Shown here in pieces: positions 14,875 to 54,428 of a stretch of DNA of 64,000 bases. Numbering within the stretch: the stretch's first letter is position 1; the number at the start of each line of letters is the position of its first letter. The stretch is from Methylophaga sp. (GTDB lineage: Bacteria; Pseudomonadota; Gammaproteobacteria; Nitrosococcales; Methylophagaceae). The translations under genes were made by a program, and so were the position numbers. Under the pieces are notes generated by a model. The model was given only the letters and a program-made list of their open reading frames with translations. It was not told where the DNA came from and ran no database searches. Location of the stretch: assembly GCA_002733105.1 (NCBI GenBank), contig NVUI01000008.1, positions 50,507 to 114,506 of the forward strand. Reading direction: 5' to 3'.

Positions 14875-14890
14875 CGTTTAATTTCCTACT

Positions 14891-15063: not shown

Positions 15064-15088
15064 TAATTATCTAAAATCGAGCTTAATT

Positions 15089-15127: not shown

Positions 15128-15137
15128 ATTCCTCATC

Positions 15138-15162
15138 AAAAAAATAGCTCATAATGAGCTAT
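15138..15162 (-). terminator. intrinsic terminator immediately after the precursor gene
   Basis: On the minus strand an atagctca / tgagctat stem (8 bp, 3-nt loop) starts 6 nt after the TAA stop and is followed by U7. Confidence 0.6.
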
Positions 15163-15167
15163 CTAAT

Positions 15168-15506: not shown

Positions 15507-15723
15507 AAATATCTCCCTTAAAATATTAAATCTCAATTTTGAATCAAAACCCTATTCAATTATTTTTAAATGAATAATGACCAAAAAATGAGGAGGCATA
15601 TTTGCCTCTCCAAGCTAGACGCATGCTAAAAGATTTAGTTACAAAAATGGTCACATATTTCTTTGTTATTATTTCAATTAAGCCATATAGTATTGATATA
15701 TAAATTAATTCTATGGTTATATT

Positions 15724-29636: not shown

Positions 29637-30974
29637 TTAGGATCCTACTTTATTCAATATTCTAAGTTTTTTGAGATATTTTGATTTTTTTACTTGTTTA
29701 CCCCAAGCGTCATATAGCGTGACTAAATTTTCCAATGCAACTTTAAGTTCTGGTTTCAGTGCACTTGAGACTTCGAGCAATTCGAAGGCCTGTAAAAATA
29801 AAGGTTCTGCTTTCTTATATTGACGCTTGCTATAGAAAATAGCGGCAGCACGAGCCGCTATATTAGATGCTAGCTGTGGTGATTGCTGAAGTTTGTTATG
29901 AAGTTCAACACTTTGTAAATAAAGTTTGAGCGCTTCCTCTTTATTGCCTAGATCTTCTTCAAGACTGCCTAAATTACCCAGTATCAATGCCTGCTCAACA
30001 CTGTTGTCTTGTCCTAATTGATGCAATGTTGTTAACGCTTTTTGATAGAGAGGCTTAGCCTTATCGAATTGTTCTTTTTGTTGATGATCTAGTGCCAATT
30101 CATTAAGATTCATAACGTTTATCAGTGATGGTTTGTCTTGATGCTCCCGAGTCTTGGATGCTTGTACTCGTAGATGGATTGCTGCTGCTTGTTTGTTTTG
30201 TACATCAAGAATTACTGCCAATCGTTCTAGTGTTTCGGCGATACGAACATCATCCATTTTTAGTGTTTTCTGCTCATAACTAAGCTCTTGCTCTAATGCT
30301 TGTTGGGCTAATATTGCTTGTCCTCGTTTCATGTGAGCTTCGGCTAGTGCATAACTAATCTGGCGTATTTTTTCATTGAAAGATGAGGCTAGGTTTTCTT
30401 TTTGATATGTCTCCACAGTACTAGCCACGTCGATAGTAGCTTTGTAATATTGCAATTTATTATTGAGTCTGGTGAGTGCTTGTGCCGTTTTTAAAGCGGC
30501 ATCTCCATGTGTTTTTAGATTCTTACTTTGTATCAACCACGCTGATTGATAGGCTGTGATAGCTTGTCTTTCTTGACCTGATTGCTCCAGGAAATCACCT
30601 TTATTGAATAACATCATAGCTAATTTGGGGTGATCTTTTGCATATAACTGCTCGGCCAGTAGCAAGGCTTGATCAAGCGAGGTTAATGCTTTTTTTTTAT
30701 CACCTTTTGCCATCAGTACAAAGGCTAATAAATTAAGGCTACTGGCTTTAAATTTTAAGCCATTATCTGCTTTGTCAGCCCTAATAATAGCCTGATTAAG
30801 CAATGTTTCAGCATCGTTATAATTGCCCTGCTGATAAAATATTGTTGCTTGTTGCTGATAGTTTTGCCAACTGCTGTCTGCATGTAACAGTGGACTTAAT
30901 AACAGCATAACTAAGGCTGTAGATACCGATCCTAATACCAGTGAAACAGAGGCTGTAAAAAGTGAATGGAACAT
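29637..30974 (-). CDS. secreted/periplasmic tetratricopeptide-repeat protein
   Basis: Hydrophobic signal-like N-terminus (..LLLSPLLHA/DSS) followed by many 34-42-aa TPR-like units (..A..Y.QAL.L....G......A....NLA.....). The start lies 2 nt after the Slam stop. Confidence 0.7.
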   Translation of the reverse strand: MFHSLFTASVSLVLGSVSTALVMLLLSPLLHADSSWQNYQQQATIFYQQGNYNDAETLLNQAIIRADKADNGLKFKASSLNLLAFVLMAKGDKKKALTSLDQALLLAEQLYAKDHPKLAMMLFNKGDFLEQSGQERQAITAYQSAWLIQSKNLKTHGDAALKTAQALTRLNNKLQYYKATIDVASTVETYQKENLASSFNEKIRQISYALAEAHMKRGQAILAQQALEQELSYEQKTLKMDDVRIAETLERLAVILDVQNKQAAAIHLRVQASKTREHQDKPSLINVMNLNELALDHQQKEQFDKAKPLYQKALTTLHQLGQDNSVEQALILGNLGSLEEDLGNKEEALKLYLQSVELHNKLQQSPQLASNIAARAAAIFYSKRQYKKAEPLFLQAFELLEVSSALKPELKVALENLVTLYDAWGKQVKKSKYLKKLRILNKVGS

Positions 30975-30976
30975 GG

Positions 30977-32470
30977 TTAAAAGCTCCTTTCTAGTTTGAA
31001 ACTAATCTGATTACGCTGATGGCTGAATAGCCAATCCAGATTACTGTGAACAGTACGGTATCTTAAAGTAAGGTTAGGTGTGAAACCTGCAATCTTAAGT
31101 TTAGAAGCCTTTAAAACCACGGTATAGTTTTGCTCTATATCACTACGTTGCTCACCTAATATCTTACTAAATTCATGATTATCTCGTTTACGAACAGAGG
31201 CAAAAGCAACCGCATTAATACCATAAGAAAATTGTTTGGATACACCAAGTCTCAAACCCCATTGTGTATAAGCTAGCGTTTTCTCATTTGCCTTATTTTC
31301 TAACCAATCAATACCACCAAATACTATCCAGTTTTTAGGTAACATTTGCCATATTGTGGCATTAGCCGAATATGACTCCCCTTCAAAACGACTATGGCTT
31401 TCTTTTCGATAGTCTAGCTTTTTGTAATCTGCTTCTAATTTAAACATCCGTTTATTGGAGATATTTCGAGTCCATTCACTATGTAACCCCCATGCGCCAT
31501 AGCGTATTTCATTACCATAGGATAATAATTCAAAAGAAGGAGCGAACCGGATCTGATCATCTAAATCTTGATAACGATAACCGAATTGGCTAATGGATGT
31601 TGCTTCATTATAGTCACGATAATCTTCATAGCTTTGACCATAGAGCAAGGTGCGAAAGTACATGCCATGATGGCCACTGATAGGCAGCTGTTTATTGATA
31701 GTTAATTCGTAATCTACACCATGAGCCTCAAGGGCATCGGGAGTTTTTCGATCGTAGAGGCATTGACCTTGATAATATAAAAAACAAGTAAAACTCTCCG
31801 AAGATTGGTTGAGGTTATCATTCCATATTGCACCGACAGCAAATGAGCTAGTCCAACTATTTCTCTGTTCCAAGGCCTTAGTAAAACTCATAATGGTATT
31901 AATAACACCTTGTTGCTGACTATTTGTAGAGTCTAGTTTAAGATTAACTTTATCAAATTGTTGTTTAGCTTCTTTATCTTTATGGTCTTCAAATAATATT
32001 CGAGCAAGTTCAAGTTGCCCGGGTAAAAAGTCAGGGTTCAATGATAAAAGGTGGCGATATTCCGTCTCTGCTAGATCCATATCACCTTGAACTCTAGCCA
32101 GTGAGCCTCGAGCATAGGCTAATAATAAGGGATCAGCTTTAGCCAGACTTTGATATTCACTTAAAAAATAAAGCACTGCTTGCCACTGTCTTTGTTGAAT
32201 TGACACATAGATCGCACGACCCAAATCATTTGCATTATGTTTTACTGGATAAGACTTACCATTTAAGGTTATTTTTGGATGGTGTCCCTGCAGATAATCT
32301 TCATTTTTTAATAATTCCTGTTGCTCTTGATTTGTCTGCTGTTCAATAGATTGCTCTATCCGTAATCGCGTATCTAAATCATCAGCTACCGCGGTTAAGC
32401 TAATAAGTAGCGTGATAATTAAAGCAGTAATACGGTAATAATTAAACTGAGATTTTAATAACGGCGACAT
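30977..32470 (-). CDS. surface lipoprotein assembly modulator (Slam; DUF560 outer-membrane translocon, type XI secretion)
   Basis: Signal peptide, a periplasmic TPR segment (GDMDLAETEYRHLLSLNPDFLPGQLELARILFE), then a roughly 300-aa segment of alternating beta-strand pattern ending in a terminal F (..ISFKLERSF). It lies adjacent to a TbpB-like cargo and a TBDR. Confidence 0.8.
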   Translation of the reverse strand: MSPLLKSQFNYYRITALIITLLISLTAVADDLDTRLRIEQSIEQQTNQEQQELLKNEDYLQGHHPKITLNGKSYPVKHNANDLGRAIYVSIQQRQWQAVLYFLSEYQSLAKADPLLLAYARGSLARVQGDMDLAETEYRHLLSLNPDFLPGQLELARILFEDHKDKEAKQQFDKVNLKLDSTNSQQQGVINTIMSFTKALEQRNSWTSSFAVGAIWNDNLNQSSESFTCFLYYQGQCLYDRKTPDALEAHGVDYELTINKQLPISGHHGMYFRTLLYGQSYEDYRDYNEATSISQFGYRYQDLDDQIRFAPSFELLSYGNEIRYGAWGLHSEWTRNISNKRMFKLEADYKKLDYRKESHSRFEGESYSANATIWQMLPKNWIVFGGIDWLENKANEKTLAYTQWGLRLGVSKQFSYGINAVAFASVRKRDNHEFSKILGEQRSDIEQNYTVVLKASKLKIAGFTPNLTLRYRTVHSNLDWLFSHQRNQISFKLERSF

Positions 32471-32484
32471 AAAACAGGCTCATT

Positions 32485-32527
32485 AATAGAAAAAAGAAAA
32501 GCCGAGCATGACTTCCATGCTCGGCTT
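32485..32527 (-). terminator. strong intrinsic terminator between the cargo gene and the Slam gene
   Basis: On the minus strand a 12-bp perfect stem aagccgagcatg / catgctcggctt (5-nt loop) is followed by UUCUUUUUUCU. It ends 15 nt before the Slam ATG. Confidence 0.85.
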
Positions 32528-32549
32528 AACACAACACTGTTTTACAACA

Positions 32550-33311
32550 TTAATCCTTGGTACCACCAAATGAGGTATCAAAGATAGTTCCTGCAAAGTC
32601 AACCATACCCGCTAGGTCCGCTTGGCCATTGTAGAACTGACCAGAAACATCACCACCTGTAGCCGAGAAAATCGCAACTGTTGCGCTTGCTGTACCCGTA
32701 CCAGTAATAGACGCATCGGGATTAATGGTCACTGTACCGATATTGACAGAAGATAGTGCACTGGACATTGATCCTGTTAATGTTGAATTATCAAAATCAG
32801 CCGTAAAGGTTCCGCTTAGGGCACCATTTATTCCAGCATAGTAATTGTTAATACCTTTAACAGAATAAGTAGCAGTACCGGTTGTGGTGATTGATGTATC
32901 AGGATTATCACCTGCATAGTAGACTGTACGTGTTGCAGCAAAAGGTAATCCAGTATCAGACCATTCGCCAAACCAAATATCGCTAGTACCCACTTGGGCA
33001 AAATTAAAGACACCTAAATCATCATGGTCAACAGGTGCACCGCTATAAGGGAAGCTCAAGCTATAAACACCATTAACAGGGCTGGTGAAACCAGCCAAAC
33101 CTTGGAAATCAACCAATAAGCCGGAGAATACTGGAAAGGCGATACCTGTTCTACCAGCGGTATGAGGTGGCATATTGAAATTTGATACGCCCACTGTAAT
33201 ATTTGTAATATTAGATGATCCACCTACTACTGTGATTGCTTGAGCCTGACCTGCAAGAGCAAAGGTAGTTAATGCAAGTGCAATGCTACTGATTAATTGT
33301 AACTTTTTCAT
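32550..33311 (-). CDS. secreted TbpB-like/hemophilin-like beta-barrel protein (putative Slam cargo, non-lipidated)
   Basis: SPase-I signal (..AGQAQA/ITVV) and no Cys anywhere. The C-terminal half has the 8-strand barrel pattern of Slam substrates (ATYSVKG.., GTFTADFDNSTLTGS.., ITGTG.., VSGQFYNGQADLAGMVDF.., ending SFGGTKD). Confidence 0.72.
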   Translation of the reverse strand: MKKLQLISSIALALTTFALAGQAQAITVVGGSSNITNITVGVSNFNMPPHTAGRTGIAFPVFSGLLVDFQGLAGFTSPVNGVYSLSFPYSGAPVDHDDLGVFNFAQVGTSDIWFGEWSDTGLPFAATRTVYYAGDNPDTSITTTGTATYSVKGINNYYAGINGALSGTFTADFDNSTLTGSMSSALSSVNIGTVTINPDASITGTGTASATVAIFSATGGDVSGQFYNGQADLAGMVDFAGTIFDTSFGGTKD

Positions 33312-33405
33312 TTTATAACTCCTGATTGTGATTACTTATTTTCAAAGTGAAAATAAGGTGTAACTAACAAAGAGGCCTCTTTGTGTTTTCTGACCGAACG
33401 TTTTA

Positions 33406-36400
33406 TTAAAAACGGGCAGTCAAACTTAGTTTTAGGGTCCTACCCGGCGCCGCCATCGCAGAGCGGGTGGCCGGATCAACATAATATTGGTCGCTTAAAT
33501 TGCTGCCGCTTAACTCAACAATAAGCTCATCATTAATGTTGTAACGGGCATAGGCATCCATAATAATCACTTCATCCCAACTATAAGCCGTGTTAAAGGT
33601 ATATCTGTATCCAGGGTTACCGGTGGTGAAAATATGATCGAGGTACCAGTCTAGATCATCATTTTCATACTCTTTATAGTAGGTAAAGCGGCTACCAAGT
33701 TCTAATTTCCGTTTAAAAAATCGGCCGCCAACAGACCAATTGGCTGATAATTTTGGAGTGGCTTGTACCAACTGATAACCACTGGGAAATCCATATTCAA
33801 AACAGGTGGGTATAGGATTTTTAATGGAGTGAAGTAAGCCCGTAACAGAGAGTTGAGCGGCAGAGTCTTTATCACAAATTTCATTTTGCAAGGTGTAATT
33901 AACACCTAATTGAGTGAAAAATCGGCCACTATCATAGCGAAAGTCCAGTTCAATACCTTTTATTTTCTGCTCATCAATATTATTAAATGTAAAATTAGTA
34001 TCACGCTCAATCACATTTTTAGTGAGATTCTGATAATAGGTCAGTTTAATATCAGCATATTCAGCATCGGGTAACCACTGGGTTAAATCATGCACATAAC
34101 CTATTTCCCAGTTATAAGCATGTTCTGGTTTTAAACTAAAAGCTCTTGTGTTGGCAGAAAAGCCAATGGTGCTTTCAAACATACTGGGGTAACGTAAAGT
34201 TTCAGCATATTTAAAATAGCCGCGGCTATGCTCGGTAAATTCATAAGCCGCTGTTAAATGTGGCACCCAGCCATGGTCTTTCTGTTTTTTTGCTTTTTGA
34301 GGTTCGGATTTTGTTTGCGGAAGGCCAATACAACTAGATATATCTGGTACGTCTGATAAATCACCATTACTGCAAGGGTTGGTGCTTAGATCATAATTGC
34401 CATCGGCATCTGGATACCAATTGCCAGCACTATTATTATGTGTGCTACTGCCAAGGAGAATAGGATTACTTTTATAGGCCGCTAATAAAGTTTCATATAG
34501 ATTCTTAGTCGCAGCATCTGGAGCTAGTGCGATAAAAAGTTCAAGTTGTGCGATAAAATTATCACGTACTACCTGATTAGCTTGTAGCTCTGCGGTAGTA
34601 TAGGGCGTAAAGGTACTATAACTAAGCTGGTAATGAGTAAGATTAAATTGTGTAAAATCATTGTGTTTATCTAAAAAATCATCAAAAGCCCAATAAGATG
34701 AATAGGTCATACCACCATTTATTGTTAAACGATTGGTAGTTTGCCATGCTAGGTCAAAATTACCATCCCATTCTTGACGGCGGCCTGCTCGGGGGAAACT
34801 GTGGAAAGGAATTGTCTTGGTAAATTCATAATCATCAGCTGAAGACAGTTTTTCACGTTGAAAATGGCCACCAACAGTTAAATCTAATTTACTCGATAGA
34901 TTCATCTTATTGCTAATGGTTAAGCCAGCACGGGTATTAGTAGAATTAACGGCAGCACCATCAACCAACAGACCATCTATTGGGGTACCATTATCGATTC
35001 TCTGCTGATTAGGAAAGCCGCCCGAGGTATAAGTATCACTCTCGGTATCGGTATACCAAAGCGTGCTTTGTAAATCTAGCCATTTATTATCAACCGGCTT
35101 ATAACTATAGTCGATGTTATATGCCTTGGATGTGACCTCACTTAAAGGCCATTGCACCTCACCAGCAGCATCCGAACTCACTATTCTTGATGGCATGATT
35201 TCACCATAAGTGCTATCTGAATGGCGATAATTTAGGCTTAGTTTTTGATCATCCGTAATATGCCAACTACTTTTTAATAACCACGATGCCATCTTGCTGG
35301 AGGTATTATGTACTTCATCCCCCGGTTGCCACAAGCCGGCCAGTGCTCGAATTCGATCGCGAAATTCTTTTGCATCGGTAACACTACTAGAATAATAGTC
35401 AGAATTATTATTACCGGAAAAATAATTACCGCGTTCACGGTAGGCATAGGCTGCTAAAAAATCAAACTTATCTAATGTTTTGGCCGCCGCTAGACGATAG
35501 GAATAATCGTTACCATTAAGTGGATTAAGATCATTACCTGATTTTGATTTAGGTGTCACTCGCAGTGTTAAATCATTAAAAGGAGCAACAGCATTGGCAG
35601 GGTAGCCCGCTACATTGGTCGCCAACTCGCCAGTGTGTAAATCTGGCACCCGTTCATCAACGGCGTTACTACTGCCCTCGACTTTTAATTCAATACCAAA
35701 ATCTTCACCCTCTTCAATAATATCTGCAGGCTGCAAAGTCGTTACCACCATCGCACCACCGACACCACTATTTACATCACGTTCATTGGTGGCACCTTTG
35801 TGAATTTGGATAGAACCAATAAGATTAGGATCAATATAGTTACGATTGGTAGCACCGTTATAGCCCCGCCATACGGTCAGTGCTTGTTCGGTACCATCAA
35901 TAATCACTGGCACACGACCAGGCCCTTGAATACCACGAATATTGAGATCGAGGGCGCCACTATTACGCGCTTCACCACTGAATACTCCTGCGATCCCTTG
36001 CAGCAGATCTGATGGAGTGGTGCCTTTGTAACGCTCTATTTCCACTTTCCCCATATAAGTGGTAGAGGTATTTTTATCATAAACATCGTCATAGCCTATT
36101 TCATCTCGACCATAGCCAGACTGGCGAGAACTTTCGACTGTTATAGTCGGGATATTAGTCACATCACCAACTTGTTTGGCTTTGATGGTATAACTGCCAT
36201 TTTGAGCTTGTACGATCAGACCTGTTCCTGCCAAGATACGAGTTAATGCACTGTTTATTGAATAAGTGCCTTGAACACCGTTACTTCGTTTTCCTGCGGT
36301 CAAAGATGCATTAATTGAAAGATCAATCCCTGCTTTCAATGCAAAATCATTGAGCACTTTATCCAGTGAACCCTGGCTAATTGAATAGTGATGTGCACTA

Positions 36401-36519
36401 GCTTGACGAGTATTCTCTGCTGACCAAGCCAATGGGCTTAATCCTGCAAAAAGGGCCATACTGATTGCTAGTTGTATTAATGCAAATGGTGTTAACGGAC
36501 AGCGCTTTGTTGCTTTCAT
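33406..36519 (-). CDS. TonB-dependent receptor with N-terminal STN signalling domain (transducer type), 1037 aa
   Basis: Signal peptide, STN domain (YSISQGSLDKVLNDFALKAGIDLS...SYTIK), plug (..DLLQGIAGV..., IRGIQG.GRVPVIIDG), a long barrel and terminal ..LSLTARF. Confidence 0.92.
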   Translation of the reverse strand: MKATKRCPLTPFALIQLAISMALFAGLSPLAWSAENTRQASAHHYSISQGSLDKVLNDFALKAGIDLSINASLTAGKRSNGVQGTYSINSALTRILAGTGLIVQAQNGSYTIKAKQVGDVTNIPTITVESSRQSGYGRDEIGYDDVYDKNTSTTYMGKVEIERYKGTTPSDLLQGIAGVFSGEARNSGALDLNIRGIQGPGRVPVIIDGTEQALTVWRGYNGATNRNYIDPNLIGSIQIHKGATNERDVNSGVGGAMVVTTLQPADIIEEGEDFGIELKVEGSSNAVDERVPDLHTGELATNVAGYPANAVAPFNDLTLRVTPKSKSGNDLNPLNGNDYSYRLAAAKTLDKFDFLAAYAYRERGNYFSGNNNSDYYSSSVTDAKEFRDRIRALAGLWQPGDEVHNTSSKMASWLLKSSWHITDDQKLSLNYRHSDSTYGEIMPSRIVSSDAAGEVQWPLSEVTSKAYNIDYSYKPVDNKWLDLQSTLWYTDTESDTYTSGGFPNQQRIDNGTPIDGLLVDGAAVNSTNTRAGLTISNKMNLSSKLDLTVGGHFQREKLSSADDYEFTKTIPFHSFPRAGRRQEWDGNFDLAWQTTNRLTINGGMTYSSYWAFDDFLDKHNDFTQFNLTHYQLSYSTFTPYTTAELQANQVVRDNFIAQLELFIALAPDAATKNLYETLLAAYKSNPILLGSSTHNNSAGNWYPDADGNYDLSTNPCSNGDLSDVPDISSCIGLPQTKSEPQKAKKQKDHGWVPHLTAAYEFTEHSRGYFKYAETLRYPSMFESTIGFSANTRAFSLKPEHAYNWEIGYVHDLTQWLPDAEYADIKLTYYQNLTKNVIERDTNFTFNNIDEQKIKGIELDFRYDSGRFFTQLGVNYTLQNEICDKDSAAQLSVTGLLHSIKNPIPTCFEYGFPSGYQLVQATPKLSANWSVGGRFFKRKLELGSRFTYYKEYENDDLDWYLDHIFTTGNPGYRYTFNTAYSWDEVIIMDAYARYNINDELIVELSGSNLSDQYYVDPATRSAMAAPGRTLKLSLTARF

Positions 36520-36590
36520 TCTTTAGAAATTACTCTGCTAATGGTCTATACCTCTAAATACCGAATGAAAAGTTAAAACCCGCAACAAAT

Positions 36591-36609
36591 AGTAATAATT
36601 CTTATTATC
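36591..36609 (-). promoter_or_regulatory. possible Fur box upstream of the TBDR gene
   Basis: Minus-strand gataataagaattattact matches the 19-mer GATAATGATAATCATTATC at about 14/19 by hand. Confidence 0.35.
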
Positions 36610-36660
36610 AATTAGAGCAGAAAGAGTTAAGGATGAAATAAATCCTCTAAATGAAAGAGG

Positions 36661-37611
36661 CTAAACGGCAGAGATAGTGACCCAATAACGAGTAAGTCGA
36701 TTGAGTTTAATAGGTAGACTGGCACGCAGTTGTTGTAAAATACGATCAGTATCTTTAAGGGTAAATACACCTGTTACGGCTAAATGATTAAGTGCCGGTG
36801 ATACGCGTAATACACCTTTTCTATAACGGCTTAGTTCTTCAATAAAGTCAGTTAATGGCATTCTATTAACGACTAATTTACCTATTACCCAGCTAATCGC
36901 ATCAGGATTAACTTTTTGAATGGACTGGGTTTCACTAGTGTTAAACGCAAGACTGTTGCCAGGGTTTAATATGGTAGTTGCTTGCATATCATGCCCAGTC
37001 ACATGAGCCGGTTGTCCTCGATATAAACTTACACGGGTGTATTTACTAGTATGCCTAACGTGGAGTTGGCCTTTATCAAGCCTGATTAATCCATTTGGGG
37101 TTTTAACATGGTAGGGCTGCGAACCTGGTGAATCAAGCAAAAACTCTCCGTAATCGAGGGCGAGTGTATTTGCTGTTGGCATCGCCATAACCGTGGCAGT
37201 ATTGATGGTTAACTGACTACTATCAGCTAACACTACACTTTTTATTTCTCCCGTTGCCGTTGTGAACGCTGATGTGCCCATAAAATTAGCTAGTAATTGA
37301 TTATAATTCCCTTCGTTTTGATACATAGTTGATGCAAGAAATCCACCCGTTGCAAAACCCGTTAGACTGAGGAATCGTCGCCTCGACAATTGTCGACTAC
37401 GAGTAATAATACGAGATGCTTCTTTGGGTACTTCGCCAAAACGCTCTTGGGCATTCATTAAACATTGCCAAGCATGTTCATTTTTTGGATCTTCATCACG
37501 CCATGCTTTGCAGGCATCATGGTCTTGGTCTGATGGGATGTCGGACCAAAGTCTAGCCATCCAATGCGCTGCTGTTTGAATGCGTTCAACATCAGGGCTA
37601 TTTTGCATCAT
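36661..37611 (-). CDS. FecR-family anti-sigma factor / signal transducer
   Basis: N-terminal A.HW..RL......D....W...DP.N..AW motif, a single TM (FLSLTGFATGGFLAS) and a periplasmic FecR domain. It overlaps the sigma gene by 4 nt. Confidence 0.9.
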   Translation of the reverse strand: MMQNSPDVERIQTAAHWMARLWSDIPSDQDHDACKAWRDEDPKNEHAWQCLMNAQERFGEVPKEASRIITRSRQLSRRRFLSLTGFATGGFLASTMYQNEGNYNQLLANFMGTSAFTTATGEIKSVVLADSSQLTINTATVMAMPTANTLALDYGEFLLDSPGSQPYHVKTPNGLIRLDKGQLHVRHTSKYTRVSLYRGQPAHVTGHDMQATTILNPGNSLAFNTSETQSIQKVNPDAISWVIGKLVVNRMPLTDFIEELSRYRKGVLRVSPALNHLAVTGVFTLKDTDRILQQLRASLPIKLNRLTRYWVTISAV

Positions 37612-38126
37612 AGATTATGCTTTAGCATGGCTATAGTGCAGGCCGCTAATCCTCTAGCAATGTATTTTTCTACTGATGATACCGAGACTTTAAGTTGTTC
37701 AGCAATAGTACGGTAGCTAAGCCCTTCTATCCGTCGCAAAAGGAATGCTTGTCGAGCTTTTTCAGGCAGATTATGTAGTAATTCATCCACTTCAATTAAT
37801 GTTTCTATGGTCTGCAAACGATGTTCTGGTGATTCTTGATTCACCTCAGGTAGTTGGCGAATCGTATCTAAATAAGCTTGCTCTATTCTCCAACGTCGAG
37901 CTTGATCAACAAGTAGACCTTTTGCCACACGAGTTAGATATTGTCGGGCGTACTCCTCTGGAGGGATTTTTCCACTCACTAATATTTTTAAATATGTATC
38001 CTGTAGCAGATCTGCTGCTTGGTGTGAGCAATGGAGTCTTTTTCGTAGAAATATTGATAACCAAGCTTGATGTGCTTGATAAAGTTGAGTTAGATCAGTT
38101 TGCATTTTGTATGTTATTTTGTTCAT
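37608..38126 (-). CDS. FecI-type ECF sigma-70 factor
   Basis: Region 2 (..LQDTYLKIL..) and region 4 HTH (EGLSYRTIAEQLKVSVSSVEKYIARGL). I place the start at MNKITYK (38126); the tracked start at 38189 would bury the Fur box inside the ORF. Confidence 0.88.
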   Translation of the reverse strand: MNKITYKMQTDLTQLYQAHQAWLSIFLRKRLHCSHQAADLLQDTYLKILVSGKIPPEEYARQYLTRVAKGLLVDQARRWRIEQAYLDTIRQLPEVNQESPEHRLQTIETLIEVDELLHNLPEKARQAFLLRRIEGLSYRTIAEQLKVSVSSVEKYIARGLAACTIAMLKHNL

Positions 38127-38156
38127 ACCATTAAAATCTCTATACACAAATCCAAC

Positions 38157-38175
38157 CTTAATGATAATCATTCTC
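38157..38175. promoter_or_regulatory. Fur box upstream of the ECF sigma gene
   Basis: cttaatgataatcattctc matches GATAATGATAATCATTATC at about 16/19 by hand, 31 nt upstream of the proposed start. Confidence 0.7.
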
Positions 38176-38378
38176 ATTACTATTAACAAACAAAATGTAC
38201 ATTTTTTAATAAACGTTAATGCATGCTTAGGTAATTCATTGTATTTAGTAGAAAAATAAGTATGTAGAGATCATTTATTATTCTTACCTAGCGCAAATAA
38301 AATGATGAAATGTAGTCCTCTATAACAATCACATGAAAATTCTTGTTGTTTGGCCGTCATACAAACCTGTCAATTAGC

Positions 38379-39200
38379 TCACCTAATTTGAAACTGAACT
38401 GGGACGATTAACTCTAATACTTCTTTACCCATTTCTTTAGGAAAAGGTGGTAGTGGCTGTGCTCGCTTTATCATCGCTTCAACCTCATCATCAAGCTGCG
38501 AATATCCCGAGCTTTGTTTGATCGTATAACTAAGCACATTACCCTGGCGATCCATTTTGAAATAAAGAAGTACAACTCCTTCATGTCCTCTCCTACGTGC
38601 ACGGCGTGGGTATTTTTTATGCTTTTCTAACCAGCTTTGTAGCAGTGCCATATAATTAGTTGTTGTTCCTTTGATTCCACCACCCGAACTAGCATCACCA
38701 TCATCTCTATCTTGTTTATCTTTTGTGCCTGACACTGCCATTGTTCCTGATGAACTAGATTTGCTAGGGACTTGTTTAACTTTTTTTACTGGCTTAGCTT
38801 TTTTGACTAGCTGAGATTTAGCTGTCACTTTTTTAACAACTTTAGGAACTTTCTTTATAACAACTTCAGCTTCTTTTTTTACTTCCTCAGGTGCCTCTTC
38901 TGAAATAGCTTCTGGCTCAACGTGTTCTACAATCGGTTCTTCAACTTTTTCAGGTTCAGGCTCTTCTATTTCTTCAGTTTCAGTTGCTTCTTCATCAACC
39001 GAGGTTTCATTAGTTTCTTCAGTAGCAGGTGCAGGAATACCACCCGCTGGGCCTAAAGAAATATCAATACCCTGCAACCCAACCTCTTTAGCCGTTGCCT
39101 CTGATGCTTCTTCGTGAACAAAAGTGACAAACAAACCAATATGTAAAAAGAGTGCAAACAAACATGCATAAATCCATTGTCTGGTACTGAAAACTGTCAT
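38379..39200 (-). CDS. tonB: TonB energy transducer
   Basis: N-terminal anchor, a long Glu/Pro/Lys/Val-rich spacer, and a C-terminal TonB domain (YP..ARRRGHEGVVLLYF..D..G.V......SSGY..LD.E...I.RA.PLPP.P). Confidence 0.9.
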   Translation of the reverse strand: MTVFSTRQWIYACLFALFLHIGLFVTFVHEEASEATAKEVGLQGIDISLGPAGGIPAPATEETNETSVDEEATETEEIEEPEPEKVEEPIVEHVEPEAISEEAPEEVKKEAEVVIKKVPKVVKKVTAKSQLVKKAKPVKKVKQVPSKSSSSGTMAVSGTKDKQDRDDGDASSGGGIKGTTTNYMALLQSWLEKHKKYPRRARRRGHEGVVLLYFKMDRQGNVLSYTIKQSSGYSQLDDEVEAMIKRAQPLPPFPKEMGKEVLELIVPVQFQIR

Positions 39201-39604
39201 TCTTTTTTTACTAAGGTCAGCAGCTGTAGTTTTTTCACACCAGCAGTACGTAAAATCTCCATGATCTCCACCACATCAATCGCTTCTACTTGTGCATCTG
39301 CTTTTAGTTGCACTTGTATTTCACTTTTTGATTTCATCTGTTCTACGACTATTTGTTCAAGTTCATTCTTTTCAATTGATCCACCATCAAAAACTAATCT
39401 GCCATCCGCAGCAAGCAATATGACGGTATCTCCTATTTGGGTTTTACCATCACTGTCTGAAACGGGTGGATCAATACGGAATGGATCGGCTACTGATAAA
39501 TGTCCTGCAACCATAAAAAATATTAACAACAAAAAGACAATATTGATTAACGGTAAAATACTGTCTTCATTATTTTGAGGGCGTTGTCGTTGTGGAAATT
39601 GCAT
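39197..39604 (-). CDS. exbD: ExbD/TolR-family biopolymer transport protein
   Basis: LPLINIVFLLLIFFM TM block followed by a periplasmic domain. Its stop overlaps the tonB start (ATGA). Confidence 0.88.
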   Translation of the reverse strand: MQFPQRQRPQNNEDSILPLINIVFLLLIFFMVAGHLSVADPFRIDPPVSDSDGKTQIGDTVILLAADGRLVFDGGSIEKNELEQIVVEQMKSKSEIQVQLKADAQVEAIDVVEIMEILRTAGVKKLQLLTLVKKE

Positions 39605-39606
39605 AG

Positions 39607-40050
39607 TTATTGAGTCGCATCACGACTTAATGATAGATTTTTCCCACCGGCACTTTTAATGCTATCAATAACATTAACAACCGCTTGCAAAGGAACTCCA
39701 GCTATCGGTTTTACTAATATACGTTTATCAGGTTGTTGTGAAATCAGCTTTTGTACCTTATTCATTAAATTATCTTCAGAAACAGGCACGCCTCCAATCA
39801 ACATTTGATTTGGCTGTATTTCTATTAACAGTGCTTCATCATCACTATCGCCTGTAGCAGCATGTACTGGTGCATCAAGCCGTATTTCACGCCAATCAAA
39901 AAAGGAGGATGCCAGCATAAAAAATATCAACAAAATAAACACCACATCAATGAGCGGTGTCAAACTAATTAGTTGACGTTTTCTTGCAGGTTTAGTGGCT
40001 AACGCTAAGCTTTGCAGATCTGCTTGATACTGTTTCATGTGTTGTTTCAC
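39607..40050 (-). CDS. exbD: ExbD/TolR-family biopolymer transport protein (second copy)
   Basis: LTPLIDVVFILLIFFM block. Both candidate ATGs (40050, 40038) overlap the 3' end of exbB by 47-59 nt. Confidence 0.85.
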   Translation of the reverse strand: MKQHMKQYQADLQSLALATKPARKRQLISLTPLIDVVFILLIFFMLASSFFDWREIRLDAPVHAATGDSDDEALLIEIQPNQMLIGGVPVSEDNLMNKVQKLISQQPDKRILVKPIAGVPLQAVVNVIDSIKSAGGKNLSLSRDATQ

Positions 40051-40831
40051 TAGGAGAGGTCAAATCTATCGTAAATACTTGGGTTACTGCATTTTCCATT
40101 GCGTGAGCTGTTCTCTCAACAATTCGCTCTAACCAATTCAAAATCACTACAACCGGTATAGCAACCGCCAAACCTACAGCTGTTGTTAACAAGGCTACCC
40201 AGATACCGTCGGATAAAATTGATGGATCAACCTGATTCCCTGCCAAGGCAAGTTGACGAAATGCTGCAATCATCCCGATTACGGTGCCAAATAGCCCTAA
40301 TAATGGCGAAATTGATGCAATGACTTCCAGTGTTCGAAATTGCAGTCTTAGTTGTTCAATTTTTTCGGATCCAAATCGAACAACCTCTTCTCGTATCAAC
40401 GAGTCTGTCAATGTAGATGCTAATGTGCCATTAATGGCGACAGCAACAGTACTTGCAACAGGATGGTTTGAACCTTGAATTAATGCAAGTGCATCATGAC
40501 TGTGTGATGATCGATGCAAGCTAATCGCTTTATTTACAGCCTCGTCCCCTTTTCTCAAAACTCGGAACTGCCATATTTTCATGAAAGTAACTGTTAATGC
40601 AATTACGGAAAGAACAACAAGTATCACTACCACAGGCCCACCAATTTCAAAGAACTCTTGGACCATCATTATTGGACTAGGCTCCACTGCTGAAACTAAG
40701 TCGGATTCCATAATTGATGCTAGATCAGGATCCATAACTGACAATAGATTAGGATCTGCAGTTAGAACTGGCTTGGCATCCACAAGTAAAACTCCTTTAT
40801 ATTTGATAACAGAGTTGAAAAAGTGATGCAT
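39992..40831 (-). CDS. exbB: MotA/TolQ/ExbB proton-channel protein
   Basis: Conserved C-terminal block SPLLGLFGTVIGMI.AF......G..DP..L..GI..AL.TTA.GL.VAIP. The core begins at MMVQEFFEIGGPVVV, so an alternative start at 40669 (GGAG upstream) is at least as likely as 40831, which has no SD. Confidence 0.85.
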   Translation of the reverse strand: MHHFFNSVIKYKGVLLVDAKPVLTADPNLLSVMDPDLASIMESDLVSAVEPSPIMMVQEFFEIGGPVVVILVVLSVIALTVTFMKIWQFRVLRKGDEAVNKAISLHRSSHSHDALALIQGSNHPVASTVAVAINGTLASTLTDSLIREEVVRFGSEKIEQLRLQFRTLEVIASISPLLGLFGTVIGMIAAFRQLALAGNQVDPSILSDGIWVALLTTAVGLAVAIPVVVILNWLERIVERTAHAMENAVTQVFTIDLTSPSETTHETVSSRSAKLSVSH

Positions 40832-40890
40832 TAAAAGAAAATAAGCCGCACTTTTTAGACAATTACTTCACAAGTATACAATATCTAAAT

Positions 40891-40909
40891 GAGAATGAGA
40901 ATGACTTTC
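40891..40909. promoter_or_regulatory. Fur box upstream of the exbB operon
   Basis: gagaatgagaatgactttc matches the Fur 19-mer at about 14/19. It is part of a module duplicated at 49659..49745. Confidence 0.55.
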
Positions 40910-41051
40910 ATTAATATTCATACAATGTACAGTGTCACTCACTTTATAAAGCTTGAATAACATTATTTATCATCCGATAACCATTTCCCAACTTGTTCTA
41001 CAAATCGACTAAAATCAGCTACAATAAATCTGTCCTCTTTTTCTTCAAAAG

Positions 41052-49658: not shown

Positions 49659-49677
49659 GATAATAACAATGATTTGC
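49659..49677. promoter_or_regulatory. Fur box upstream of the second TBDR gene
   Basis: gataataacaatgatttgc matches the Fur 19-mer at about 14/19, 150 nt upstream of the ATG at 49829. Confidence 0.55.
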
Positions 49678-49828
49678 ATTAACATCCAAACAATGTACAG
49701 TGTCACTCACTTTATAACGTGTTTATAAAACTGGAATAACAATTAAATGAATACTGAGCCCTAAAATTTATAAGAAAAAATTTTAGCTTGTATGCATCAA
49801 AAATTAATAAGAGTCAGGGGAATTTGTC

Positions 49829-52270
49829 ATGCAAAAAATAAAAAACAGGTTAAAACAGTACTTTAATTGGGTAACGATAAAAAATAGTGTTTTGATGATA
49901 GTCGTTATCATTTTTAATATGACAGTTGTAAATGTTCAAGCCCAAGAAATCGTAACTTACAATATTCCCGCAGGTACTTTAGAAAAAGTACTGTCTCAAT
50001 TTACTGATGAATCTGGCGTTTCCTTTTCTACTGAATCTAAAGTAATTAAAAACAAATTAAGTCAGGGCTTACAAGGTCAATACACTGTTAAGCAAGGTTT
50101 AGGCATCTTGTTAAAAGAAAGCGGTATAGTTTGGCGACTAACAGCAGATAATGCACTGATATTAATATCAGAAAATAATAAGCCAAGTACCATGCGCCTC
50201 ACTCCTATTAAAGTTGTGGGTAACAGAATAGGACATTCAGCTGAAAGTGCAATTTTACGCAAACGAGATGCACCGAATGCTATAACGACGATAGAAGCTG
50301 GTCAACTGAATCAATTTGGTGATCAGCCTCTAGGTGATGCCTTACGTCGTTTACCAGGAGTGACATTTGGGGATGCAAATCGTGCACGTGAAGTTCAGCT
50401 AAGAGCAATCGGTAGTCAGTACACACAGGTTTTAGTAAATAACAGAGCATTAGCCGATGGTAGTTCTAGTCGTTCAGTTCAAGTAGACCGAATTCCGAGT
50501 TCACTCGTTAAACGTGTTGATATCATCCGTGCACCACTGGCAAGTCAAGATGGGCAAGGAGCCGCAGGTACATTAAATATTGTCTGGAAAAATACCGATT
50601 TTACGCCACGAACTGAATTTGGAGTAGGAGGTGGTTACTTGGAAGATACGGCAAGAGTTGGGGATATAACAATCTTACATGCAGGAGAGTCTGGAGCTTT
50701 TCGTTATGCTCTTTTGGGTGGGGTGCAACGCCAGCGTCGTAACGAAAATGAAGATGTCTATGAATTTAAAGGTGACGGTACAGCAGATGGTGGCTCTATC
50801 GAAATCAATGAACGTACTTTCAATCAGGTCAATCTAGTTCCGGCTTTCGAGTTACAACTAGGACAGCAGAATATGTTGCGCTTTGAGCCAAGCTACTTAT
50901 ATACCAAGGAAATTCGTTACAATCCTATTGAAAAGTTAAACGATGATCAGCTTTCCAGCTCTGAAATTAAGGTTAAATTACGAGAGCGTGTGCGTGAAAA
51001 CTTTGGCTTGCTTACATCGTGGCAGCATCAGTTATCATCAGAAAGTGATTTTACATTCAGTATTGACGCACAAAAAGGAAGCGAAAATACAGAACGTGAC
51101 GAAACCAAATTTAAACCAATTGGTGCATTTGATTCTCAAACGCTACGTAGCCAGAAAAAGGAATTTACTCGCTTGAGCCCAGCCATTCGGTTTAACCACT
51201 ATCTTGGTGACCATGATCTAAGTTGGGGTGGCGATTTTAGTCAATCAAAACGCAAAGAAAGTGATATTAAAAATGGTGTTTCTACTGATACCGATACTTT
51301 CAAGATACAAGAAGATCGTTGGAATGGTTTTGCACAAAACATCTGGCAAATAAATGACCAAATGATCTTGACCAGTGGCTTACGACTAGAACAATCATCC
51401 ACAAAAACAACCGACTTTGCTGGTAATAGCAAAACAAAATCAAGTGTGTTTGCATTACCCTCTCTACATATTGTGCATAATCTTGGCGAACAAACTGATG
51501 TACGTTTAGGCGTTGCTAGAACCTTACGCCGGGCAGGATTGGGCGATCTGTCGCCAACGATATCAAATGAAAGTGGCACGCTGGCAGATCCTGATACTGC
51601 CGGTAATTCAGGATTAAAGCCAGAATCTATTTGGGGCATAGATACCGGTATTGATCACTACTTTTATAATGGTGGCGGTATCGCCTCGGTTAATCTATTT
51701 GCACGTGAATTTACTGATAAAATTGAAAATATTAGTACGCTCGAAAATGCTCGTTATGTTTCTCGTCCACAGAATATAGGCGATGGGCGATTATTTGGTA
51801 TTGAGTTCGAGGGGCGTCTGCCTATGACAATGATCGATTTGCCTAACCTTACCTTATGGGGAAACGCTACTTATATAGATTCAGAAGTAGATACATCAAC
51901 AGGCGAAACCAGACGATTCTTAGAACAGCATGATGCCGTAGCCAATATAGGGCTGGATTGGTATGTGGCACCTTGGCATTCGACCTTTAGTATTAGTACA
52001 AATTGGGTCAGTGGTTATGACCAAACGGTTAAAAATAACGATGGCAGTTCAACAAATACAGTTTTATCTTCTTTGGCTAGACTGGATATGTCAGCGCGAA
52101 CAGAACTGAGTAAGGAGGTCTCTCTGAATTTATCTTTACTTAACCTTTTAGCACCTTCACAGACACAGACTGATAGAGTCTTCATGGCTAGTGGTACCTT
52201 GGATTCACGTAGTAAAGCGACTGAAGTAACTTATCGTTCGGTATATCTAAGATTGAATTGGAAGTTCTAA
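49829..52270 (+). CDS. TonB-dependent receptor with N-terminal STN signalling domain (no cognate sigma/anti-sigma nearby)
   Basis: Signal peptide, STN domain (YNIPAGTLEKVLSQFTDESGVSFS..), plug (LGDALRRLPGV, VLVNNR), barrel and terminal ..LRLNWKF. Confidence 0.9.
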   Translation: MQKIKNRLKQYFNWVTIKNSVLMIVVIIFNMTVVNVQAQEIVTYNIPAGTLEKVLSQFTDESGVSFSTESKVIKNKLSQGLQGQYTVKQGLGILLKESGIVWRLTADNALILISENNKPSTMRLTPIKVVGNRIGHSAESAILRKRDAPNAITTIEAGQLNQFGDQPLGDALRRLPGVTFGDANRAREVQLRAIGSQYTQVLVNNRALADGSSSRSVQVDRIPSSLVKRVDIIRAPLASQDGQGAAGTLNIVWKNTDFTPRTEFGVGGGYLEDTARVGDITILHAGESGAFRYALLGGVQRQRRNENEDVYEFKGDGTADGGSIEINERTFNQVNLVPAFELQLGQQNMLRFEPSYLYTKEIRYNPIEKLNDDQLSSSEIKVKLRERVRENFGLLTSWQHQLSSESDFTFSIDAQKGSENTERDETKFKPIGAFDSQTLRSQKKEFTRLSPAIRFNHYLGDHDLSWGGDFSQSKRKESDIKNGVSTDTDTFKIQEDRWNGFAQNIWQINDQMILTSGLRLEQSSTKTTDFAGNSKTKSSVFALPSLHIVHNLGEQTDVRLGVARTLRRAGLGDLSPTISNESGTLADPDTAGNSGLKPESIWGIDTGIDHYFYNGGGIASVNLFAREFTDKIENISTLENARYVSRPQNIGDGRLFGIEFEGRLPMTMIDLPNLTLWGNATYIDSEVDTSTGETRRFLEQHDAVANIGLDWYVAPWHSTFSISTNWVSGYDQTVKNNDGSSTNTVLSSLARLDMSARTELSKEVSLNLSLLNLLAPSQTQTDRVFMASGTLDSRSKATEVTYRSVYLRLNWKF

Positions 52271-52682: not shown

Positions 52683-54428
52683 TTATTGATAGACTAACAA
52701 CTCTGCCAATCCTGTTTCTCGCTGATGTTGTGTGGTTACTGTTTTACTAAGAATTTCTTCACTACACAATAGCATTACTTGTTTCTTTGCTCTAGTAATG
52801 GCGGTGTACAATAGTTCTCGGGTCAATAACGGGCTTTCTTCTTCCGCTAACAACACAAGCACATTATCAAATTCAGAACCTTGGCTTTTATGAATGGTAA
52901 TCGCATAGGCCGTTTCATGCGCTGGCAAACGAGCTAGATCAAACCAATGCAATACATTATCAAATATAAAACAAGCTCGTAATTCACCTGATTCGTCACG
53001 CAGGATCACACCCGTATCACCATTAAACAAATGTTGGCGATGATCATTTTGTATTACCATAATTGGTCGACCATGATAAAAATCCTGCTTAGTTCGCCAA
53101 CCTTGTTTTTGAATCACTCTTTCAATTAACCCATTCACTGACTGAACAGATTGAGAGCCATTTTTTAATGCACACAACACACGCTGTTGTTCAAATAATT
53201 GTAGGCAAGTTAGTGCATCAGCACCACTGTTAACTGCATCAAAAAAGGGCTGATAAAGTGCTGTAACGCTAGCTAATATGCTGTTAGGATCACATTGTTG
53301 TTGCCACAGAGATGTTTGAGCTGTTGAAATCACCTCAAACACAGATTGAAGATTGCCTGACTGCACCGCTGTTGCTAATCGACCTATATCACTTTGTTGT
53401 TCAAAACGATAACTATGTTGCAGCTCAACTACGCCATCAATCAAAACCGTATTATGCTGGCTGGCATTGATTTTAATATCTGTCACTGCAGCCAAATCAC
53501 TACAAAACCCAGTTGAAAATGACATATGTTGTTGGCATAAGTTTGCCAACACGGCACCCGATTCCACCGAGGCTAATTGTTGACTATCACCCAGTAATAC
53601 AACACGTGCTTTTACTGGCAAAGATTTCATTAATATTGCCATTAAGCTGATATCAATCATTGAGGCTTCATCAATGATCACAATATCTACTGGTAAAGGT
53701 TGTTGTGCATTATATCGACCTTGTTGATTATCGATGGTAATACCTAATAGTCGATGCAATGTTTTAGCCTCAAGTGACTCAAAGCCACTGTTATTGATGG
53801 CTTGTTGTAATCTTGCTGCTGCCTTACCTGTCGGTGCAGTTAGTGCAACTTTAAATTGCTTGTTTTGGGTAAATAACATAGATAACAGTCGTAACACTAT
53901 CGTTGTTTTACCCGTACCCGGCCCACCAGAAATAACACTAAATTGACGTGTTAAAGCCATAAACACCGCCACTTTTTGCCAATCTATACCTTCAATATTA
54001 CTTGGCCAATTTGCAAATTCCTGTTGAATTTGTTGTTGATTAATCAGTGATATTGACTGACATCTGTGCCGAATAGCGTTGGCTACATTTTGCTCATCAA
54101 GCCAATAACGATATAAATAAAGCAAGCCTTGATCGGTCAAAATTAACGGGGTAAAGTCACCTGCTTCGCCCACAACATGGCTTTGCTTTAATCGCTGCAC
54201 CCATTCTGCTAGCTGTTCAGGTAAAGCTAATGAAACATAGGCTTCATTATCTATGACATGAGCTAGGTTTAAACACACATGGCCTTTGCTGTTAGCATCA
54301 CTCAATAACGCTGCTGTGATAGCAATTAATGGATCATCCGTTTTATCTAATCGAGCAATAAATTGAGCAAATTGACAAGCTAATTCGCCAAAGCCTAGTG
54401 GTCGAAGAGCAGCTATTAATTTTGTCAT
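52683..54428 (-). CDS. recD: exodeoxyribonuclease V subunit alpha RecD
   Basis: SGGPGTGKTT, VIIDEASMID, LGD..QL.SV and TIHKSQGSEF motifs. It overlaps the recB stop by 4 nt. Confidence 0.93.
   Translation of the reverse strand: MTKLIAALRPLGFGELACQFAQFIARLDKTDDPLIAITAALLSDANSKGHVCLNLAHVIDNEAYVSLALPEQLAEWVQRLKQSHVVGEAGDFTPLILTDQGLLYLYRYWLDEQNVANAIRHRCQSISLINQQQIQQEFANWPSNIEGIDWQKVAVFMALTRQFSVISGGPGTGKTTIVLRLLSMLFTQNKQFKVALTAPTGKAAARLQQAINNSGFESLEAKTLHRLLGITIDNQQGRYNAQQPLPVDIVIIDEASMIDISLMAILMKSLPVKARVVLLGDSQQLASVESGAVLANLCQQHMSFSTGFCSDLAAVTDIKINASQHNTVLIDGVVELQHSYRFEQQSDIGRLATAVQSGNLQSVFEVISTAQTSLWQQQCDPNSILASVTALYQPFFDAVNSGADALTCLQLFEQQRVLCALKNGSQSVQSVNGLIERVIQKQGWRTKQDFYHGRPIMVIQNDHRQHLFNGDTGVILRDESGELRACFIFDNVLHWFDLARLPAHETAYAITIHKSQGSEFDNVLVLLAEEESPLLTRELLYTAITRAKKQVMLLCSEEILSKTVTTQHQRETGLAELLVYQ

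Follow-up and report, generated by a model that had tools for sequence, protein, structure and literature searches.

A predicted HphA-type heme acquisition locus in a Methylophaga genome, with a conserved tetratricopeptide repeat gene behind Slam

The closest described relatives of the system reported here are the HsmA-HphA-HphR clusters, in which HsmA is a Slam protein of the type XI secretion system (T11SS), HphA (hemophilin) is the secreted hemophore and HphR is its TonB-dependent receptor (TBDR). Experiments in Acinetobacter baumannii have demonstrated that HphA secretion depends on Slam and that heme uptake depends on HphR (PMC8560813), and Slam-dependent secretion of HphA has been shown in Stenotrophomonas maltophilia, Vibrio harveyi and Haemophilus haemolyticus as well (10.1101/2023.03.29.534853). 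In S. maltophilia, V. harveyi and Haemophilus, the core cluster consists of Slam, HphA and TBDR genes alone, and HphA sequences have been catalogued from Oceanospirillales (21–31), Alteromonadales (8–9) and Vibrionales (54–58), with one marine structure solved, that of V. harveyi (10.1101/2023.03.29.534853). In this work, we have analysed a stretch of 64,000 nt from Methylophaga sp. (assembly GCA_002733105.1, contig NVUI01000008.1, positions 50,507 to 114,506), hereafter the window, whose 64-kb numbering is used throughout. Ten genes of the window, all on the minus strand at 29637–40831, very probably form a complete HphA-type hemophore system for heme acquisition, which Fur would repress and the substrate of the system would probably induce. 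On all the family-defining features open to a sequence-level test, the locus is an intact, ordinary member of the published HsmA-HphA-HphR family. That is, the core system is already known; the new element is a conserved, Slam-coupled gene for a periplasmic tetratricopeptide repeat (TPR) protein at the operon end.

Pfam domains have been searched in all ten open reading frames (ORFs), with NCBIfam as a second check, and the two agree. From the upstream end, the genes are:

39992..40831, minus strand: exbB (Pfam MotA_ExbB, 1.4e-27)
39607..40050, minus strand: exbD, copy 1 (Pfam ExbD, 1.3e-24)
39197..39604, minus strand: exbD, copy 2 (Pfam ExbD, 2.9e-23)
38379..39200, minus strand: tonB (Pfam TonB_C, 6.4e-18; TIGR01352, 5.7e-20, above its cutoff)
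37608..38189, minus strand: FecI-type extracytoplasmic function (ECF) sigma factor gene (Pfam Sigma70_r2 and r4_2; NCBIfam FecI, 2e-44, below the equivalog cutoff)
36661..37611, minus strand: FecR-type anti-sigma factor gene (Pfam DUF4880 and FecR; NCBIfam FecR, 3.6e-48, below cutoff)
33406..36519, minus strand: hphR, receptor of 1037 aa (Pfam STN, Plug and TonB-dependent receptor barrel)
32550..33311, minus strand: hphA, 253 aa (Pfam HphA_N, 1.3e-32, and HphA_C, 3.4e-38)
30977..32470, minus strand: hsmA, the Slam gene (Pfam TPR_Slam, 1.4e-25, and SlipAM/DUF560, 1.7e-52)
29637..30974, minus strand: TPR protein gene, 445 aa (Pfam TPR_12, 3.7e-32)

The ten ORFs are contiguous and co-oriented, and the series that the first-pass annotation had proposed for them (exbB-exbD-exbD-tonB, sigma factor and FecR, receptor, cargo, Slam and TPR protein) has been confirmed family by family. 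Three independent metagenome contigs carry the same ten genes at 100% identity, and the gene order can therefore not be put down to faulty assembly of one sample. As for the gene starts, sequence inspection points to GTG 40783, preceded by an AAGGAG ribosome-binding site, as the likely true start of exbB, and gene callers on the identical contigs give an ExbB of 263 aa; the sigma gene likely starts at ATG 38126, which gives a product of 172 aa (168–172 aa in orthologs). The start of the anti-sigma gene overlaps the stop of the sigma gene by 4 nt, and hphR, hphA and hsmA follow each other contiguously in the same orientation. A cell-surface signalling triad is present with all its parts, namely sigma regions 2 and 4, DUF4880/FecR, and an STN domain preceding the plug. 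Since the NCBIfam equivalog cutoffs are not reached, the sigma/anti-sigma pair should be regarded as FecI/FecR-like and not as the ferric-citrate proteins themselves.

The identity of the cargo carries most of the argument. Both its sequence and its modelled structure mark the 253-aa protein as a true HphA/hemophilin, and not just as a TbpB-like protein. It matches both HphA-specific Pfam domains (PF22828 and PF22829) with 112.9 bits for HphA_N and 130.9 bits for HphA_C, far above the cutoffs of 22 and 31, while the TbpB_B_D match stays below cutoff (20.1 vs 26 bits). In the earlier description of the cargo as TbpB/hemophilin-like, it is the hemophilin part that is supported. In the PDB, the sequence matches S. 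maltophilia HphA (8gmm, 1e-34) and A. baumannii HphA (7re4, 4e-29), and further matches are 8gm3, 8glo and 6om5. An AlphaFold2 (AF2) model built from 35 homologs (predicted local distance difference test score, pLDDT, 87.3; predicted TM-score 0.83) shows a handle followed by eight strands within residues 146–252, the handle-plus-8-strand barrel that had been expected from the sequence pattern. When the model was run against the PDB with Foldseek, the top eight hits were only solved HphA/hemophilin proteins, five in number, with target-normalised TM-scores of 0.69–0.87, and HpuA, TbpB and fHbp followed far lower, at ranks 9 to about 50. With S. maltophilia HphA (8gmm) the protein shares 40% identity at a TM-score of 0.78, and with V. 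harveyi HphA (8gm3) 37% identity at 0.87, both target-normalised.

The residues expected of a heme-binding hemophilin are also in place. The precursor contains no cysteine and only two histidines, His50 and His96; in the alignment with S. maltophilia HphA they occupy the positions of its axial heme ligands, His29 and His80 (10.1101/2023.03.29.534853). Among the 35 homologs, conservation is complete for His96 and at least 90% for His50, and the two are predicted from this alignment to be bis-His heme ligands. In addition, Motif-1 QVGTQDVYFGEWS, the family-defining motif of Shin et al. (10.1101/2023.03.29.534853), appears in the window protein as QVGTSDIWFGEWS, with 10 of 13 positions identical. 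The signal peptide covers residues 1–25 (...AGQAQA|ITVV), is of the signal peptidase I type and has no lipobox cysteine, so that the reading as a Cys-free, non-lipidated secreted protein holds.

The receptor next to hphA is, on its sequence, a typical HphR. The STN domain, plug and barrel ascribed to it by the first-pass annotation are all found by Pfam, although the epithet "giant" does not suit it: the mass of 115.4 kDa falls inside the published HphR range of 112–120 kDa (10.1101/2023.03.29.534853), and 14 full-length orthologs in other genomes span 984–1105 aa (a fifteenth sequence was cut short during extraction). It is 41–61% identical, over at least 96% of the length, to HphA-adjacent receptors of several genera, those compared being from Marinomonas, Halopseudomonas, Stenotrophomonas, Acinetobacter, sphingomonads and Caulobacter. 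The plug-apex motif DGTEQA.TVWRGYNG is kept, with scattered substitutions, in all 16 aligned receptors, heme-oxygenase-linked HphRs among them, and Tyr220 is invariant. Among solved structures, the hemophore receptor HasR comes nearest (6e-27), and its plug heme ligand His189 aligns with this Tyr220. On the other hand, no FRAP/NPNL box was found in the window receptor, and the TonB-hemin model TIGR01785 gives 220 bits (4.4e-65), under its cutoff of 317 bits; the receptor is therefore classed as HphR and not as a classical heme receptor.

The Slam protein is likewise complete. The SlipAM/DUF560 match (PF04575) spans model positions 1–288 of 288, the N-terminal TPR domain (TPR_Slam) is present, and the sequence ends in ...ERSF, with phenylalanine as the final residue. 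A Slam-type protein with an N-terminal TPR segment and a C-terminal barrel ending in F had been proposed here, and the DUF560 search bears this out.

We have also examined the regulatory elements. Fur boxes were scored as matches to the 19-bp consensus, for which matches with at most 3 mismatches are expected 0.07 times by chance in the window. The elements concerned are:

40888..40915, minus strand: Fur-box-like site before exbB, two overlapping 14/19 matches (40891–40915)
38157..38184, minus strand: Fur box before the sigma gene, overlapping 16/19 (38157–38175) and 15/19 matches, the best match in the window
36591..36609, minus strand: Fur-like AT-rich box before hphR, 14/19, directly upstream of the receptor promoter motif
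36558..36581, minus strand: bipartite motif GGGTTTT-N10-TCGGTAT, about 40 nt upstream of hphR
33367..33384, minus strand: perfect 8-bp hairpin ACAAAGAG-GC-CTCTTTGT, just past the hphR stop and ahead of hphA
32489..32527, minus strand: intrinsic terminator or attenuator in the hphA-Slam gap, with a 13-bp G+C-rich stem (7 G-C pairs) followed by a T-run

The site at 38157–38175 is the sole match with at most 3 mismatches in the whole 64 kb, that is, 1 observed against 0.07 expected. The box lies 31–58 nt upstream of the probable start ATG 38126, and eight related loci have a Fur box of 15–18/19 at the equivalent position upstream of the sigma gene. The site before exbB overlaps a sigma-70-like promoter at 40901..40873, and the homologous element before hphR scores 15–16/19 in loci L004 and L015, its columns being conserved in the spacer alignment. 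All three sites suspected earlier, before exbB, before fecI and possibly before the receptor, have thus been found, those of the sigma gene and the receptor being conserved in position among relatives, and these matches make iron control of the locus probable. With the box scan added to the Pfam results, the overall description as a Slam (type XI) locus with an STN receptor, FecI/FecR, TonB-ExbB-ExbD and Fur boxes is upheld.

The GG.TTTT and TCG.T blocks of the bipartite motif are conserved in the alignment of the fecR-hphR spacer from nine loci of at least five genera, and we infer that the motif is an ECF-sigma-dependent promoter with an adjoining Fur site. A hairpin comparable to the one behind hphA (−18 to −34 kcal/mol) occurs between hphA and slam in 19 of 20 loci across clades, the exception being L025, where the region was mis-delimited. 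Such a hairpin is consistent with a high output of hemophore and a low read-through into the Slam and TPR genes. Processing or attenuation at the smaller hairpin, 33367–33384, could allow receptor and hemophore to be produced at different levels. Together, the conserved Fur box, the ECF promoter motif and the post-hphA terminator would offer a ready regulatory model for the family.

The mechanism we propose starts from what is established here, namely the protein families, the ligand-residue conservation, the fold, the gene order, the conserved Fur and promoter motifs and the conserved terminator; heme binding, Slam dependence and signalling are what we infer, and above all the role of the TPR protein. 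At low iron, Fur would release the exbB-exbD-exbD-tonB operon and the sigma/anti-sigma operon. HphA would be exported by Sec and cleaved by signal peptidase I, hence non-lipidated, and would then be taken across the outer membrane by HsmA, possibly after the TPR protein has handed it over unfolded or has stabilised Slam. Outside the cell, HphA would capture heme between His50 and His96 and dock in its heme-loaded form on HphR, where the adjacent TonB-ExbB-ExbD system would power import. Occupancy of HphR would signal through the STN domain to FecR, and the freed ECF sigma factor would drive the conserved promoter of hphR-hphA-hsmA-TPR, with the strong hairpin keeping the hemophore in large excess over Slam and TPR protein. 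That the inducer is holo-HphA on HphR is plausible by the precedent of HasA/HasR/HasI/HasS.

Several observations weigh against this reading, and we gather them here before they are considered in turn. The evidence is computational throughout. The exbB-tonB operon adjoins the sigma gene in the window genome alone, while a search within 10 kb of the 14 TPR-type genome loci gave no ExbB or TonB. Two Nitrincola loci, L018 and L020, have Slam without a TPR gene. No heme oxygenase or heme ABC transporter is encoded by the scanned ORFs of the window (most ORFs of at least 110 aa), and no HutZ/ChuS-type enzyme was found in the same scans. The receptor, finally, is without the FRAP/NPNL box; since the HphR family as a whole does not count among the classical heme receptors by this criterion, this last absence tells little about heme specificity.

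The most serious competing explanation concerns the extent of the system. The exbB-exbD-exbD-tonB operon may be the general TonB system of the cell, given that the 14 TPR-type loci do without it in their neighbourhood, and in that case it would be Fur-regulated machinery that is merely adjacent, with a functional unit of six genes. The closest relative, with 89% HphA identity, has a further sigma/FecR/TBDR triplet at this upstream position, the operon of the window has its own Fur box and promoter, and a second STN receptor at 49829–52270 likewise needs a TonB system. However, the operon has the orientation of the sigma gene, the gap of about 190 nt between them is short and holds no terminator predicted for that strand, and a dedicated TonB, sometimes together with ExbB/ExbD, does occur in the A. 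baumannii hemO cluster and in other HphA clades. We lean slightly against the six-gene unit while regarding it as a serious contender; by analogy with the A. baumannii cluster and several xanthomonad loci, the operon may be dedicated.

The TPR protein is where the locus departs from the published accounts. Its signal peptide (...LHA|DSSWQ) is cleavable and cysteine is absent, so that a soluble periplasmic protein is expected. The AF2 model (pLDDT 90.5) is a 19-helix superhelix, whose neighbours in the PDB, by sequence and by fold, are generic peptide-binding superhelices (KLC, OGT, LGN and designed CTPR proteins); these searches gave no specific functional homolog. The stop of Slam and the start of the TPR gene are separated by 2 nt (TAA-CC-ATG), with AAAGGAG within the end of the Slam gene, an arrangement that marks the TPR gene as translationally coupled to Slam. 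Homologs with 35–58% identity occur in Marinomonas, Marinobacterium, a Nitrincola or Osedax-symbiont relative, an Oceanospirillales metagenome-assembled genome (MAG), Methylophaga and unclassified MAGs. They stand directly after Slam, in an hphR-hphA-slam-TPR array, in 14 of 14 genome loci and 7 of 7 look-ups, and start 0–43 nt past the Slam stop in every locus whose gene coordinates were inspected. By contrast, the fetched HphA loci of Stenotrophomonas, Halopseudomonas, Acinetobacter, sphingomonads, Caulobacter, Xenorhabdus, Photorhabdus and Alcanivorax contain no TPR gene, and in several TPR-less clades its position is taken by hemO, the heme oxygenase gene, or a TonB-like gene. A profile search for the size of the family, against 1.84 billion cluster representatives at 50% identity, was swamped by giant multi-TPR proteins; what appears to be the true family is small, with about 17–20 full-length representatives of about 430 aa. 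Marinomonas, Marinobacterium, Nitrincola/Osedax-symbiont relatives, Methylophaga and subseafloor MAGs may form a marine clade that uses the TPR protein.

The MAG OZ255726 is informative about the partner of this protein. It has no sigma/anti-sigma genes; the TPR gene is present where Slam is present and absent from two Slam-less HphR-HphA loci. The TPR protein is therefore tied to Slam and not to signalling. On the other hand, since L018 and L020 have Slam alone, the protein is not essential to the system. We have considered whether it might itself be a T11SS cargo, and rejected this because it is all-alpha and without a C-terminal barrel; that it replaces a lost TPR domain of Slam was also rejected, as Slam retains TPR_Slam. 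Overall, the TPR protein is a lineage-specific accessory, most likely a peptide-binding adaptor or holdase. The more specific proposal that it is a dedicated T11SS/hemophore component, which binds unfolded HphA or the periplasmic domain of Slam, can be put forward only tentatively.

A role in signalling or proteolysis has to be weighed against this. TPR adaptors of periplasmic proteases are known from NlpI-Prc, and the TPR protein might similarly present the FecR-type anti-sigma factor to a periplasmic protease, or act as an HphR/TonB-heme-binding-protein scaffold. A generic superhelix like those of KLC, LGN and OGT would suit such a function, and 11 of the 14 TPR-positive genome loci also encode the sigma/anti-sigma pair. 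We consider it unlikely nonetheless: at least three Slam- and TPR-bearing loci, those of OZ255726, lack sigma/anti-sigma genes while its two Slam-less loci lack the TPR gene, the TPR gene starts within 43 nt of Slam in all the inspected loci, and no conserved His or Cys suggests heme binding.

If the tentative proposal of a dedicated Slam-associated holdase or adaptor is true, the TPR protein would be the first dedicated accessory factor described for Slam/T11SS. The periplasmic hand-off of unfolded cargo to Slam is unexplained, the literature citing only unnamed "periplasmic chaperones"; the published HphA/T11SS accounts that we searched for both "TPR" and "tetratricopeptide" mention neither, and in the first T11SS paper the only TPR domain discussed is the N-terminal one of Slam itself. 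The family is thus a concrete and testable candidate for this step, and culturable Marinomonas species carry the gene.

It remains to consider the ligand, which the first-pass annotation had left open for want of a heme oxygenase or heme transporter in the island. The absence itself is correct. No PF01126 was found among the Pfam-scanned ORFs of the window (part of the flanking ORFs were scanned with NCBIfam only), a tblastn search with a Methylophaga HemO gave no match in the 20.8-kb locus around hphA (about 22.5–43.3 kb; L001/L002), and the flanks encode, among others, Rnf, RecBCD, Rep, RhlE and an RND efflux pump. The conclusion drawn from it does not follow. We have surveyed 79 HphA loci, one genome per species with flanks of at most 10 kb, shorter where the contig ended, using the window proteins and the Methylophaga heme oxygenase as queries. 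A heme oxygenase is nearby in 28 of them and absent from 51, while Slam is present in 74 and HphR in 73. The published figure for the Plant/Environmental hemophilin subcluster is similar in direction, with heme oxygenase in only 19 of 72 loci (10.1101/2023.03.15.532718), and S. maltophilia HphA co-purifies with heme while its locus has no hemO (10.1101/2023.03.29.534853). Moreover, in the loci of the same gene order from Methylophaga and both Marinobacterium species, hemO and a DUF454 gene lie directly 3' of the TPR gene. Since the majority of HphA loci have no hemO and sister loci carry it, its absence does not leave the ligand open, and with both histidine ligands conserved, heme is the best-supported ligand judging from these comparisons. 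Inner-membrane heme transport and heme degradation are presumably encoded elsewhere in the genome.

That the barrel protein binds another metal, another tetrapyrrole or a macromolecule, in a non-heme nutrient system, is very improbable: the 64 kb without heme oxygenase or heme transporter among its scanned ORFs, the receptor without FRAP/NPNL, a closest relative from a cold, oxic subseafloor aquifer with no animal host and the diverse ligands of T11SS cargo sharing the barrel would fit it, but both axial ligands are kept as the sole histidines, both HphA-specific Pfam domains score well above cutoff, hemO is missing from most surveyed loci (S. maltophilia, with its heme-carrying HphA, included) and present within the same TPR-bearing clade, and the plug motif is strongly conserved with hemO-linked HphRs.

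Some further features of the related loci have been observed. The small gammaproteobacterial MAG OZ255726.1 (2.17 Mb) contains at least five HphR-HphA loci (L019, L021, L024, L025 and L090), an unusual multiplication; some are tandem and flanked by insertion sequences (IS), none has sigma/anti-sigma genes, and only some have Slam and the TPR gene. In the closest relative (L086; TULL18-1 scaffold_18, 163.5–184.3 kb), the HphA locus lies within four consecutive sigma/FecR/STN-receptor triplets on one strand. In L004/L008 (Osedax symbiont Rs1/uncultured Nitrincola, 5.06-Mb chromosome), two ORFs represent hphR and another two the Slam gene, with an IS66 transposase gene 3' of the TPR gene; the split genes reflect either a decaying locus or long-read frameshift errors. 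The Methylophaga-type loci L005 and L089 have a divergent ECF sigma gene and a PNPOx-like (PF01243) gene downstream of TPR-hemO-DUF454, so their sigma factor is placed differently from that of the window, and L005 has two tandem FecR genes upstream of the receptor.

Elsewhere in the window, a bufferin-like cluster for a ribosomally synthesised and post-translationally modified peptide (13226–15536, minus strand) looks like a copper-binding peptide system. Its precursor (15168–15536) is a 122-aa signal-peptide protein with repeated C..GxNxCK motifs, accompanied by an MbnB/TglH/ChrH-family enzyme (14005–14874; 3e-112) and a DUF2063 protein (13226–14005). The second STN receptor (49829–52270, plus strand; 813 aa) is preceded by two overlapping 14/19 Fur-box matches at 49659–49683, about 150 nt upstream, and by about 1 kb without any ORF of at least 60 aa; as it has no adjacent sigma/anti-sigma pair, it can be called an "orphan" signalling receptor. 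A ParE-family toxin gene (57952–58314, minus strand; 1e-15) lies between recC (58611–61820) and recB (54425–57940), which normally belong to a recCBD operon.

Regarding distribution, the marine-type architecture, presented earlier as a novelty, is not one, as Vibrionales, Alteromonadales and Oceanospirillales loci had been catalogued and the V. harveyi structure solved. The core system being already understood, the locus itself adds little to it. What it does is extend HphA hemophores to free-living marine and subseafloor Gammaproteobacteria. The closest relative is NORP60, a MAG from the cold, oxic subseafloor aquifer at North Pond, whose HphA is 89% identical, and because of this origin the clade should use its hemophore outside an animal host; this fits heme as a recycled iron source in the ocean.

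Compared with known systems, the locus is closest in its core to those of S. maltophilia and V. harveyi, which share Slam, a non-lipidated HphA and an adjoining receptor of about 115 kDa (10.1101/2023.03.29.534853), bis-His heme ligation, which is predicted at the equivalent positions of the window HphA, and the lack of a heme oxygenase in the core cluster. Beyond this core, the window locus includes a sigma/anti-sigma pair, a neighbouring TonB-ExbB-ExbD2 operon and, behind Slam, the TPR gene, whereas in V. harveyi Slam and receptor are separated by two lipoprotein genes whose function is unknown (10.1101/2023.03.29.534853). The A. baumannii hemO cluster shares the ECF sigma/anti-sigma pair, HphR, HphA, HsmA, a TonB-related protein and the two-component design of hemophore plus receptor, and it is under iron control, as the window locus would be (Bateman et al. 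2021, PMC8560813); it has hemO, which the window lacks, and lacks the TPR gene, which the window has. In the Acinetobacter species fetched, HphA is 43–44% and HphR 41–43% identical to the window proteins. The lipoproteins TbpB, LbpB, HpuA and fHbp have the same C-terminal 8-strand barrel with handle and are exported by Slam, as is predicted for the window HphA, but unlike the latter they are lipidated, surface-anchored and directed to host-protein ligands. The HasA-HasR-HasI-HasS system of Serratia marcescens also combines a secreted hemophore with an STN receptor and anti-sigma/ECF sigma signalling, although HasA has an unrelated fold and uses type I secretion instead of Slam. By analogy, the window locus would work like the A. 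baumannii hemO cluster minus the oxygenase, with a signalling logic resembling that of the Has system.

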